A stretch of DNA of 64,000 nt from positions 41,375 to 105,374 of the forward strand of contig JAYEOW010000004.1 in assembly GCA_034723395.1 (NCBI GenBank), in the 5' to 3' direction. A program made the position numbers. Positions 63,001 through 64,000 of the stretch are shown piece after piece. Numbering within the stretch: the first letter of the stretch is position 1; every line of letters begins with the position of its first letter. The DNA comes from Candidatus Margulisiibacteriota bacterium. Lineage in GTDB: Bacteria; Margulisbacteria; WOR-1; O2-12-FULL-45-9.

Positions 63001-64000
63001 GATACGAATGATTTAGCAACGGGGAAAACTCAGGGTGAGGGCTATGATTATTTCCTCTTCCTAACCGAATGCCCAAAATGCCCGAGGTATTTTCCGAGCG
63101 CATAATAGTTGCGATGTGAATAAGCAATCGGCTCAGCCTTTCGAAGATCATAACTCCCATCTTTCCTCATATTCTCTTCGCTGGCATGGACACAAAGGAC
63201 CTTCGCCATAAACATATCGTGGGAGCCGAGTGATTTTATTTCGGTTACTGCGCACTCAATATTGATCGGGCTCTCCTCGATCAATGGCGCTTTAACATGC
63301 TTCCCCCTAACTGGAGTAAGCTTTAATCTTTCGAATTTATCAACTTCCCTACCAGACTTCACTCCGCAAAAATCGGTCGCAAAGGCCAGTTTAGTAGTTG
63401 TTAAATTGATCACGAACTCGCCAGTCCGTTTGATTATTGCGTGAGAATGACGTGAAGGGCGTACCGAAACGTAAGTCATCGGCGGCTCGGAATTGATCGT
63501 CCCCGTCCAGGCAATAGTAATAATATTATAGTTTTCCGACCCATCTCCGCAGGAGACCATCACCGCGGGGACGGGATAAACCATTGTGCCGGGTTTCCAG
63601 ATAAGTTTGCTCATGATAAAGGAAAATGCGCCGCGAAGGAATCGAACCTTCAACCTTGACATTAAGAGTGTCCTGCTCTGCCAATTGAGCTAGCGGCGCC
63701 TGGAGCGGGAGAAGGGACTCGAACCCTCGACATCCACCTTGGAAGGGTGGAGCTCTACCAGCTGAGCTACTCCCGCACTTCGACTCGCTTCGCTCGCTCA
63801 GTGCTCGCAAGCAAAGCATCGATTCATTTCATTCACTCCAAAAAGTCCCGAGCGAATGAAATGAGCCGAGGGACTACTCCCGCACTTCGACTCGCTTCGC
63901 TCGCTCAGTGCTCGCAAGCAAAGCATCGATTCATTTCATTCACTCCAAAAAGTCCCGAGCGAATGAAATGAGCCGAGGGACTACTCCCGCACTTCGACTC

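Follow-up and report, generated by a model that had tools for sequence, protein, structure and literature searches.

A multi-copy hairpin at tRNA gene ends in a Margulisbacteria genome: a candidate REP/REPIN-like mobile element whose core recurs across bacterial phyla

The window analyzed in this study is the whole stretch of 64,000 nucleotides taken from contig JAYEOW010000004.1 (positions 41,375 to 105,374; GenBank assembly GCA_034723395.1) of a Candidatus Margulisiibacteriota bacterium, whose genome is referred to here as G000. Its end carries two tRNA genes on the minus strand and, upstream of tRNA-Gly(tcc), an array of paired hairpins that runs to the end of the contig. In window coordinates, the features are as follows.

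50456-50495, plus strand: a member of the hairpin family described below, gcccc-GAGCGA-[GTCCGCC-GAA-GGCGGAC]-GAGTCGA-ggggc, between two minus-strand genes
63627-63699, minus strand: tRNA-Lys(ctt) (ARAGORN; Rfam tRNA 65.9 bits)
63701-63776, minus strand: tRNA-Gly(tcc), base 1 at 63776 (ARAGORN; Rfam tRNA 70.1 bits)
63767-64000, no strand: tandem array, period 107, 2.2 copies, 100% matches (Tandem Repeats Finder)
63775-63804, minus strand: hairpin R1, core 63780-63799, purine strand GAGCGAGCGAAGCGAGTCGA on the minus strand
63805-63843, no strand: spacer of unit 1, separating R1 and L1
63844-63875, plus strand: hairpin L1, core 63850-63869, purine strand GAGCGAATGAAATGAGCCGA on the plus strand
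63874-63883, minus strand: duplicate of tRNA-Gly bases 1-10, CTACTCCCGC on the plus strand
63882-63911, minus strand: hairpin R2 of unit 2, core 63887-63906
63951-63982, plus strand: hairpin L2 of unit 2, core 63957-63976
63981-63990, minus strand: second duplicate of tRNA-Gly bases 1-10

The tandem units that a preliminary description of this DNA had placed at the contig end beside tRNA-Gly were recovered with the period and copy number given above. Every 107-nt unit contains a pair of inverted hairpins and repeats tRNA bases 1-10, and a third unit, which starts at 63991, is cut off by the contig end. The complement of tRNA-Gly bases 1-10 is found at 63767-63776 and again in the two duplicates. 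The core TCGACTCGCTTCGCTCGCTC is present in R1 and R2 (0 matches in 100 shuffles), and degenerate inverted copies of it are present in L1 and L2. The stem of R1 (63775-63779 with 63800-63804) takes in tRNA-Gly bases 1-2, and the GTCGA end of this hairpin is 3 nt off base 1; L1, whose stem is formed by 63844-63849 with 63870-63875, shows a change from G-C to A-T at both inner pairs. In sequencing run X1, the unitig depth of the unit was ~60, compared to 16.7 for the single-copy flank (~3.6x). No empty-site allele or joint was found in the only DNA run containing the stretch, which is kept as contigs. Sequencing runs with a small share of the stretch covered the tRNAs only. Searches of Rfam 15 with the window end (E up to 10) and with 20 related loci (E up to 1) returned only tRNAs and chance hairpin (miRNA) matches, and no T run of the kind that marks an intrinsic terminator follows the stems in the window (agtgctcgcaagc, gggactactcc) or in the 27 copies of the genome, no dedicated terminator scan having been made.

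The 20-nt core had been described as a nearly invariant loop. Covariation and folding give a different picture, in which the core is not a loop and its purine strand folds into a rod capped by a GNA triloop. When the purine strand is numbered G1A2G3C4G5A6-G7C8-G9N10A11-G12C13-G14A15G16T17C18G19A20, the rod model consists of two tandem G.A/A.G pairs (1.20, 2.19 and 5.15, 6.14), the Watson-Crick pairs G3-C18 and C4-G16 flanking a bulged T17, and a 2-bp inner helix (G7-C13, C8-G12). Across 150 distinct copies, 91.3% of the cells were paired and the covariation score was 0.497 vs. 0.214 for shuffled alignments (0 of 500 as high; slid controls 27-40% paired), which reproduces the covariation reported earlier. 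The pair G7-C13 was GC in 115 copies, AU in 30, GU in 4 and another combination in 1, and each of the outer stem pairs showed 33-52 double changes. Two species of the same genus have orthologous copies in front of tRNA-Arg(tct), and these differ by a compensated change from G-C to A-T. The ViennaRNA minimum-free-energy fold of the purine strand was exactly the rod, and R1 RNA also folded as the rod model at -9.5 kcal/mol. With RNA parameters, the purine strand was more stable (mean energy -8.11 kcal/mol) than the pyrimidine strand (-6.30 kcal/mol); it was no better than its mononucleotide shuffles (-8.11 vs. -7.88) under an energy model that scores sheared G.A pairs and GNA loops poorly. At the center of the purine strand, seven bases match exactly the motif of the extraordinarily stable mini-hairpin DNA d(GCGNAGC) (PMC13037366), with the variable base in the middle of the GNA loop. 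It should be noted that the mini-hairpin belongs to physical chemistry and is no genetic element, and that 30 of the 150 hairpin copies read ACGNAGT, in which the pairing is kept but the sequence is not.

Using a regular expression slightly wider than that of the preliminary description, which had counted at least 24 copies with 3-6 bp closing stems, we found 27 copies of the core in G000, all with such stems. The claim that all are intergenic held for most of them in a rough check: 21 of the 27 lie outside any open frame of at least 150 aa, while the other six lie within stop-to-stop frames of 157-244 aa that are possibly spurious. Four copies at contig ends (C7:75253, C19:13, C29:150728 and C45:213) belong to one longer repeat. 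Further analyses placed the 20-mer within a larger hairpin family, stem-GAGC...GTCGA-stem, of which G000 has 81 loci, and a scan for the shell GAGC...GTCGA gave 89 matches in this genome vs. 2, 5, and 8 in three controls. The flank consensus over 80 loci is C-T-T-G-Y-C-C-Y|..|R-G-G-R-C. The stem in G000 is usually GYCCY/RGGRC and is often preceded by CTTG on the purine strand; in other phyla the flanking tag is CTGTC or CCTG. Inverted pairs, which were said to bound the repeated units, are found in C3, C4, C25/C29, and C53, but many other copies are single. The strand of the hairpin relative to protein-coding genes is not fixed (10 sense and 19 antisense to the downstream gene; 14 and 17, respectively, for the upstream gene). 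Because they are multi-copy and nearly identical, the interpretation of the hairpins as copied DNA is supported.

The pattern was found in 34 of the 146 genomes of the phylum, the same number as before, with 0 matches of the reversed-pattern control in every genome, and 33 of the 34 positive genomes belong to one class. In other phyla, at least 126 stretches contain the core, consistent with the more than 124 places first listed, and isolates of Microbacterium, Humibacter, and Bifidobacterium are among the matches listed. The 80 foreign loci with flanks comprise 86 copies, 69 of which have a stem of at least 3 bp. A tRNA lies within 150 nt of 10 of these 80 loci, which corrects the earlier count of one, and at three of them (L080, L100, and L102) it is no more than 4 nt away. 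Five genomes of other phyla have 24, 66, 3, 49, and 63 copies, and the copies in other phyla (24-66 per genome) lie between ordinary genes. In G147, one of these five genomes, all 20 regions chosen by doublet spacing contain the doublet, 19 of them with both cores exact; these 19 represent one conserved composite repeat of ~330 nt, of which L216 is a diverged copy. Within the literature searched, sequence strings of the element matched only one unrelated primer, and no bacterial description of the element as a MITE or REP at tRNA genes was found.

Nine of the 81 loci in G000 lie no more than 8 nt from a tRNA, whereas 2000 random placements gave 0.48 such loci on average and never more than 4. 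The six contacts named in the preliminary description (tRNA-Gly of C3 and C4, tRNA-Arg of C3 and C15, tRNA-Met of C29, and tRNA-Ala of C53) are all present, with gaps of 3, 3, 3, 6, 4, and 3 nt. This excess is consistent with the proposed targeting of tRNA termini, which does not, however, account for the 72 loci away from tRNAs or for the hairpins in RNase P RNA described below. Of 38 contacts, 35 (24 with a 5' end and 11 with a 3' end) have the GTCGA end pointing towards the tRNA at a distance of 1-5 nt, and the three exceptions are hairpins between two tRNAs. In the transcript, tRNA 5' ends are accompanied by the purine strand and 3' ends by the pyrimidine strand. At L167, L172, and L178, the hairpin follows the operon promoter and precedes base 1 of the leading tRNA, and is thus transcribed. 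Several genomes of the class have few copies, of which about half are in tRNA leaders; this could also mean a function.

Duplicated tRNA ends beside the hairpins, also claimed earlier, proved to be frequent. Half of the tRNAs with a 5' hairpin (11 of 22) have an exact upstream copy of bases 1-10, directly followed by a hairpin. In the 5' cases that were inspected, as well as at C3/C4 and L172, the duplicated piece ends with GTAG and the hairpin begins at once; the piece ends with GGAG at initiator tRNA-Met and with GAAC or GGAG in the 3' cases. A MITE derived from a DDE insertion sequence would have terminal inverted repeats and a target-site duplication of constant length. Inverted hairpin ends are present here, and the flanking direct repeats are 10-11 nt long at tRNA 5' sites and 13 to >45 nt elsewhere (13, 21, 19-25 including part of the hairpin, and >45 at L027). 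Given this variation, simple target-site duplication is not established, and the lengths fit neither DDE-type duplication nor the IS200/IS605 mode cleanly. The stems often borrow 2-10 tRNA bases, which is not predicted by a simple cut-and-paste unit. The hairpin of L027 sits within an already duplicated tRNA-Tyr fragment, and the repeat boundaries of C3, L008, and L172 are inside the hairpin, not at its ends. The unit before tRNA-Gly(tcc) is absent in G113, G103, G114, G112, G117, and others, where the operon Arg-Leu-Gly-Lys is unbroken, and G092 possesses one extra unit that its congener G093 lacks. The junction pattern GTCGA-N9-12-TAGCTYA was too loose, matching 64 of the 146 genomes with similar control counts; by eye, the matches listed within the class resemble hairpin-tRNA junctions.

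In addition to tRNA ends, the hairpin occupies helix P3 of the RNase P RNA. This is the case in 19 of the 50 genomes of the class, and both orientations occur: the P3 strand is purine in 11 genomes, pyrimidine in 6, and a doublet in 2 (G127 and G132). The insert lengthens the RNase P RNA to ~485 nt. A normal class A RNase P RNA is present (252.6 bits), which rules out the hairpin as a replacement for RNase P. In G000, the internal loops of P3 (UCGACUC..UCGCUC) are the complement of the leader strand in the same genome (GAGCGA..GAGTCGA), and in a bolder sub-reading the P3 and pre-tRNA leader strands would pair, tethering the substrate to the enzyme. As a general rule, such complementarity is ruled out by the finding that P3 carries either strand.

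IS200/IS605-derived palindrome-associated elements have hairpin ends, follow a single-strand logic and insert by a short target word with fixed polarity. Such fixed polarity would explain the GTCGA-to-target rule of the hairpin, but no TnpA/TnpB association was found for the hairpin, its two ends are inverted instead of parallel, and it has duplicated flanks. The likeness to the REP/REPIN-RAYT systems of Enterobacteria and Pseudomonas is broader. These are short, intergenic, imperfect palindromes with many copies and mosaic clusters (PMC3733652), and the hairpin shares with them the short conserved tag by the stem, the compensated stems and, in some of its copies, the inverted doublets of ~100 nt. 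It is also a short (20-40 nt), imperfect, multi-copy palindrome that lies mostly between genes, with its 81 loci in G000 vs. 2-8 in the controls. The hairpin differs in its tag, which is CTTG (CTGTC or CCTG elsewhere) and not GTAG or CGTC, GTAG being contributed only by tRNA bases 7-10; in having no co-occurring or flanking Y1 gene; in its center, which is a conserved non-Watson-Crick rod and not a plain loop; and in its precise placement at tRNA ends. Its core is, moreover, common to many phyla, while REPIN-RAYT systems are vertically inherited according to published abstracts. CGTC-tagged REPs (Di Nocera et al., 2013; PMC3733652) resemble the hairpin in that they form a palindromic family without associated transposase genes, some members of which insert into other small palindromes; their tag and core are different, and no tRNA or RNase P link is reported in the sections of that paper used here. 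As a rule, short hairpin repeats stay within a lineage and depend on a RAYT gene, in contrast to the 20-base core found here, which is identical in isolates and metagenome bins of more than 10 phyla and has no matching transposase.

We lean, if only slightly, towards the interpretation of the hairpin as a REP/REPIN-like, non-autonomous mobile element that homes to the boundaries of stable-RNA genes. The copied unit would be a short stem around the conserved shell GAGC...GTCGA, which would insert singly or as an inverted pair ~100 nt long, with the GTCGA end placed 1-5 nt from a mature stable-RNA end (tRNA base 1, the tRNA 3' end, or helix P3). Insertion of a pair would bring a second tRNA end (bases 1-10, or 53/61-73), so that the tRNA would stay whole, and repeated insertions would give rise to arrays like that in the window. 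The active form may be single-stranded DNA, and the structured, heavily transcribed RNA genes may be recognized by their shape. The miniature mobile element proposed in the preliminary description agrees with this in that the DNA is multi-copy, nearly identical and absent at the orthologous site in the closest relatives; its enzyme was not found, and one contig-level run contained no direct sign of movement. A more far-reaching version, which is possible but doubtful, is a mobile hairpin that is guided by structure and has no transposase. A single-stranded, purine-rich DNA rod, mobilized by a host enzyme, would recognize the folded boundaries of heavily transcribed stable-RNA genes, such as tRNA base 1, the tRNA 3' end and the tip of RNase P helix P3, and would rebuild the RNA gene on insertion and cross phylum borders. 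A hairpin that is joined to exact mature tRNA ends with fixed polarity in one class and in candidate-phyla bacteria, and that repeatedly became helix P3 of an essential ribozyme, offers a tangible way to study how small repeats come to use safe sites when the genome is compact.

It is conceivable, but in our judgment unlikely, that the hairpin is a true REP/REPIN moved by a Y1 (RAYT-type) transposase, with tRNA bases 7-10 (GTAG) as the tag beside it. The element would carry bases 1-10 at one end and, by inserting behind GTAG, would rebuild the tRNA. The GTAG at the end of the duplicated pieces of the 5' cases, just before the hairpin, is consistent with this, as GTAG-tagged palindromes are the main REP class (PMC3733652). 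G000 has a single, frameshifted Y1 gene, and Y1 is found in 23 of the 34 motif-positive genomes, but also nearly as often in motif-negative ones (50 of 112), in keeping with the lack of co-occurrence noted before. Y1 is missing in 11 of the 34 motif-positive genomes, some of which are 95-100% complete (G093 and G099), and is absent in the Bifidobacterium isolate G150, which has 63 copies of the hairpin. None of the Y1 genes at nine loci is flanked by hairpins, and one of these loci has one distant copy. Furthermore, the tag away from tRNAs is CTTG on the other side, CTAC or CTCC is present in the 3' flank of only 3 of 80 loci, and the duplicated pieces of the 3' cases end otherwise than with GTAG. 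As the mobilizer, Y1 transposase does not fit.

Rolling-circle IS91/Y2 elements have CTTG/GTTC as targets. The Y2_Tnp domain (PF04986) was found in 0 of five genomes, a search in which the control genomes were silent too. Reverse transcriptase (PF00078) was found in one of five genomes and was absent from G000 (97% complete), G146, G149, and G150; as the mobilizer, it does not fit either. No autonomous parent element was found between paired hairpins that lie 1.8-4 kb from each other in G150 and G146; the seven regions sampled there encode an ABC transporter, SRP54, a glycosyltransferase, a Xer-like integrase, a kinase, a Maf-NUDIX protein, and an AAA protein. The mobilizing enzyme is neither a co-occurring Y1 transposase nor a reverse transcriptase and is probably no Y2 transposase; it may be a host function.

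An RNA-level role is an unlikely alternative to the mobile hairpin. The hairpin would then be a module of stable-RNA biology that aids processing, protects ends or binds a shared protein, and its spread would be secondary. Its transcription ahead of the first tRNA of operons, its place in an essential ribozyme, RNase P, in 19 of the 50 genomes of the class, the compensated changes that maintain the stems at their sites, and the complementarity between leader and P3 in G000 all fit such a module. GC-rich palindromes by Neurospora mitochondrial tRNA genes have reportedly been proposed as processing signals. These palindromes are a precedent for conserved hairpins by tRNA genes and, together with the mobile GC clusters of yeast mitochondria (GC42), share short direct repeats, tandem arrays, mergers, constrained stems and the lack of a known enzyme with the bacterial hairpin; they are organellar and unrelated in sequence, have flanking repeats of 2-3 nt, and are described without tRNA-end duplication in the excerpts of the source used here (PMC4478555). 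Several findings speak against it: the strand in the transcript is purine 5' of tRNAs but pyrimidine 3' of them, P3 accepts either strand (11 vs. 6), and there is no strand rule beside protein genes. In addition, most family members are away from RNA genes, close relatives process the same tRNAs without the hairpin, and the RNase P RNA is otherwise ordinary.

Copying without any dedicated enzyme, in which a very stable hairpin stalls replication and template switching, slippage, and gene conversion then yield tandem or inverted copies of the motif and of tRNA ends, appears very unlikely. It would accommodate the 100% identity of the tandem units, the repeat boundaries inside the hairpin at C3, L008, and L172, the variable length of the direct repeats, both orientations of the P3 stem and the negative search for Y1, Y2, and reverse transcriptase. 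Slippage cannot, however, account for the same 20-mer at dozens of unlinked sites and in different phyla, and the strict GTCGA-to-tRNA polarity with its 1-5 nt spacing points to a defined joining reaction. An artifact of assembly, binning or contamination, which might be suspected from the array at a contig end and from the many hosts that are metagenome bins, is hardly credible given the zero reversed-pattern matches in all 146 genomes, the copies within long contigs next to ordinary genes, the isolates among the hosts, and a unit depth that fits real repeats.

Cultivable hosts with at least 60 copies (a Bifidobacterium and Microbacterium isolates) make a search for the mobilizing enzyme feasible. 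For annotation and assembly, the hairpins are a source of longer RNase P RNA genes; they can also be called as spurious genes, and the repeats break contigs at tRNA operons.

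The final 374 bases of the window hold the genes of tRNA-Lys(ctt) and tRNA-Gly(tcc), and the first hairpin begins 3 bases past base 1 of tRNA-Gly. It is separated by a 39-nt spacer from an inverted, diverged copy, with which it forms a doublet; the doublet and the duplicated tRNA end make up one unit. The features of the window are as follows.

63627-63699, minus strand: tRNA-Lys(ctt), Rfam 65.9 bits
63701-63776, minus strand: tRNA-Gly(tcc), Rfam 70.1 bits
63775-63779 with 63800-63804: stem of the first hairpin, whose first two bases are tRNA-Gly bases 2 and 1
63780-63799: 20-mer TCGACTCGCTTCGCTCGCTC, enclosed by the first hairpin stem
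63850-63869: core of the inverted, diverged copy, with stem 63844-63849 pairing with 63870-63875
63874-63883: CTACTCCCGC, complement of tRNA-Gly bases 1-10, after the inverted copy; the whole unit then follows again
50456-50495: a further family hairpin, between two genes

Tandem Repeats Finder reported the array at 63767-64000 (period 107, 2.2 copies, 100% identity), where it stops at the contig end, which is also the window end. The exact 20-mer matched twice in the window vs. never in 100 shuffles. In the one sequencing run containing the stretch, the unitig depth of the array unit was ~60 vs. 16.7 for the single-copy flank, which is consistent with a genuine repeat present several times. 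A 329-nt soil-metagenome contig (run X6, record 22) spans window positions 63703-63805, i.e., tRNA-Gly and the first hairpin, with one letter different; the same junction thus occurs in a close relative living elsewhere.

Comparison with other genomes of the phylum identified the array as a gain. The operon Arg(tct)-Leu(tag)-Gly(tcc)-Lys(ctt) is unbroken, with a plain spacer of 20-30 nt before Gly(tcc), in G113, G103, G114, G112, G117 and G104, of which G113 is the closest relative (96% identity over tRNA-Gly and tRNA-Lys). In the genome under study (G000), the same operon is split exactly at the array, with Arg and Leu on contig C3:3507-3667 and Gly and Lys at window 63627-63776. Genome G092 has two tandem units before tRNA-Gly(tcc), with GCGGGTGTAG ahead of each, and its congener G093 has the inner unit only. 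At two fetched loci, a hairpin lies inside an older duplicate: L027 has a 32-nt hairpin within a previously duplicated tRNA-Tyr fragment, and L084 a duplicated tRNA-Lys fragment interrupted by a family hairpin. At L167, L172 and L178, the hairpin separates the -10 box from tRNA base 1 (promoters read by eye).

The preliminary description had claimed six tRNA contacts in G000, all of which were found again on re-examination. Among the 81 family loci of G000, 9 are no more than 8 nt from a tRNA, vs. a random mean of 0.48 and maximum of 4 (2000 placements in non-coding-like DNA). When a contact was defined as a loop edge no more than 12 nt from a tRNA end, 38 contacts were found over all sequence analyzed. 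In 35, comprising 24 tRNA 5' ends and 11 3' ends, the GTCGA end of the core faced the tRNA; in the remaining 3, the hairpin is squeezed between two tRNAs with its GTCGA end toward the next tRNA. The contact loci were fetched via the motif or tRNA-Gly and are thus a non-random sample of tRNAs, to which the polarity is not attributable. The gap between GTCGA and the tRNA was 1-5 nt in 30/35 contacts, so that tRNA bases make up part of the hairpin stem; the maximum was 10 (a Peribacteria locus), and a Saccharibacteria locus and contig C39 each used 7.

An exact upstream copy of tRNA bases 1-10, 63-120 nt off and with an inverted hairpin directly after it, was found for 11/22 tRNAs with a 5' hairpin. 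For tRNAs without one, a copy with an inverted hairpin was found in 9/186, including several neighboring paralogous tRNAs and some half-units. Duplicates of 3' ends comprise tRNA bases 53-73 (C29, L027) or 61-73 (C53). In C3, L008 and L172, the direct repeat extends over the terminal bases of the hairpin, and in L027 over >45 nt of upstream DNA. A copy of the C29 tRNA-Met unit with a 21-nt tRNA-Met 3' fragment lies at C25:1879-1962, on a 3.7-kb contig that has no tRNA-Met gene, which indicates that the tRNA fragment can travel with the unit; its far flank resembles a decayed tRNA end. The duplicated tRNA ends may stem from duplication of the target or from template switching, or the element may itself carry them, so that the tRNA is restored when the element inserts behind GTAG. 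A different inverted-repeat element (aactaacaac/gttgttagtt words, AT-rich center) also adjoins tRNA-Gly and tRNA-Pro genes, in G000 (C3:4590-4710) and three relatives (L162, L176, L180).

G000 (1.68 Mb, 55 contigs) contains 27 copies of the 20-nt core by a regex permitting the known variants, all with a closing stem of 3-6 bp and two pairs of them in tandem. It is the richest genome of its phylum: the core pattern occurs in 34/146 genomes, 33 of them in the class of G000, with 1-8 copies in the others, and the reversed pattern had no match in any of the 146. Four of the 27 copies (C7:75247, C19:7, C29:150722, C45:207) belong to a ~110-nt palindromic composite repeat (cctcacccc ... ggggtgagg) with a second hairpin; this repeat lies at the ends of three contigs, where it probably interrupts the assembly. 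The core is one form of a larger family with the shell stem-GAGC...GTCGA-stem, whose members with other inner parts include GAGCTTGTCGA, GAGCGAAGTCGA and GAGCGA-[longer hairpin, GAA loop]-GAGTCGA. The shell scan of G000 gave 89 matches, merging to 81 loci, vs. 2, 5 and 8 in three controls. The flank consensus of 80 loci was CTTGYCCY ahead of GAGC and RGGRC behind GTCGA, with the exact CTTG tag in 26/80; its counterpart in other phyla is CTGTC or CCTG.

At least 126 stretches with the core were found in other phyla (one genome per species), against chance matches roughly estimated at some tens, given 17 fixed and 2 twofold pattern positions and 596 Gb of sequence. The matches listed include Acidobacteriota, Planctomycetota, Actinomycetota (among them isolates of Microbacterium, Humibacter and Bifidobacterium), Firmicutes, Saccharibacteria, Parcubacteria, Peregrinibacteria, Eremiobacterota, Gemmatimonadota, Omnitrophota and others. 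In 80 loci fetched with flanks, 69/86 copies had a closing stem of at least 3 bp, and ~35 of them shared the extended context cAGATCC[T/C]-core-[A/G]GGATGACAg. Five genomes of other phyla contained 24, 66, 3, 49 and 63 copies. In the Clostridia bin G147, the doublet is the center of one ~330-nt composite repeat in 19/20 fetched regions (L197-L215), present in both orientations, bounded by long terminal inverted repeats (aaattgttgtttagcgc...) and containing several other hairpins built alike (CTGTCAT-stem-loop-stem-ATC); the 20th region (L216) has a diverged doublet with different flanks. The copies in a Bifidobacterium isolate lie between ordinary housekeeping genes. In a Vulcanimicrobiota bin (L051:300-430), a hairpin lies ~35 nt upstream of an apparent 5S rRNA gene (by eye), and the link may extend to rRNA operons. 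The hairpins must have spread by copying, since nothing else can account for the same 20-mer recurring at unlinked sites and across many phyla.

The purine strand of the core reads GAGCGA-GC-GNA-GC-GAGTCGA. We propose that it would fold as a rod with the pairs G1.A20, A2.G19, G3-C18 (T17 bulged), C4-G16, G5.A15, A6.G14, G7-C13 and C8-G12, capped by a GNA triloop, the middle base of which alone varies. The minimum free energy (MFE) fold of the window copy is identical to this rod (-9.5 kcal/mol; ViennaRNA, RNA parameters). With the same parameters, mean stability was -8.11 for the purine strand vs. -6.30 for the pyrimidine strand and -7.88 for mononucleotide shuffles, than which the purine strand is thus no more stable; sheared G.A pairs are poorly treated by the energy model used. 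Across 150 distinct copies, 91.3% of cells were paired vs. 27-40% in slid controls, and the covariation score was 0.497 vs. 0.214 shuffled (0/500 shuffles as high), core positions 3, 4, 16 and 18 being largely fixed by the search pattern and uninformative either way. The G7-C13 pair was GC in 115 copies, AU in 30, GU in 4 and other in 1. A compensated G-C to A-T change separates the orthologous hairpins preceding tRNA-Arg(tct) in two congeneric species, and three genomes have A in place of both C4 and G16, a double change by which A4 would pair with T17 instead. The structured hairpin of the preliminary description is upheld, but its 20-nt loop is replaced by a rod on MFE and covariation grounds. 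The inner part, GCGNAGC, is the sequence of an extraordinarily stable DNA mini-hairpin, according to PMC13037366.

Family hairpins also occur in helix P3 of RNase P RNA. That of G000 (C14:3271-3643, outside the window) is an ordinary class A RNA (252.6 bits), whose P3 consists of a pyrimidine-oriented family hairpin (CCCU-UCGACUC-[inner hairpin]-UCGCUC-AGGG), which the shell scan had also matched. Among the 58 RNase P RNAs of the class above the score cut-off, P3 was read by eye from marked sequences in 50, and 19/50 carried a family hairpin (degenerate in one case). Of these, 11 have the purine strand (G137, G144, G109, G143, G093, G112, G121, G101, G145, G105, G099), 6 have the pyrimidine strand (G000, G106, G111, G116, G139, G118) and two, G127 (L262) and G132 (L269), have a whole doublet, with RNAs of ~485 nt. 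P3 was plain in 3/3 RNase P RNAs from hairpin-rich genomes of other phyla. By crude gene calls, the purine strand follows no strand rule beside protein genes (downstream, 10 sense and 19 antisense; upstream, 14 and 17). The mirror-symmetric polarity around tRNAs, the use of either strand in P3 and the lack of a gene strand rule thus place the logic of the hairpin at the DNA level. Maintained pairing, with a rod possible for the purine strand only, points to a single-stranded DNA intermediate.

Among candidate mobilizing enzymes, Y1 transposase is encoded in 73/146 genomes of the phylum, but its presence in 23/34 motif-positive and 50/112 motif-negative genomes, and within the class in 22/33 with and 19/32 without the motif, bears out the earlier statement that it does not co-occur. 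Moreover, it is absent from an isolate with 63 hairpin copies, and hairpins flank none of nine Y1 loci fetched from other phyla. The sole Y1 (IS200-like) gene of G000 (C19:37834-38058; L001:1250-1740) is split by a frameshift that separates the HUH motif from the tyrosine region, and the hairpins downstream of it are of another kind. Reverse transcriptase was found in 1/5 genomes and Y2 transposase in 0/5, control genomes being likewise silent for Y2. An intrinsic terminator is at odds with the lack of a T run after the stems on sequence inspection, and no Rfam family matched the hairpin.

A literature search of limited coverage found no description of this element; the texts compared included PMC3733652 and REPIN/RAYT papers. 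The REP/REPIN class is the closest known kind, but two of the features that define it, a GTAG tag and a RAYT gene, fail here. In behavior, the element most resembles the GC clusters of mitochondria and the palindromes beside Neurospora tRNA genes (PMC4478555).
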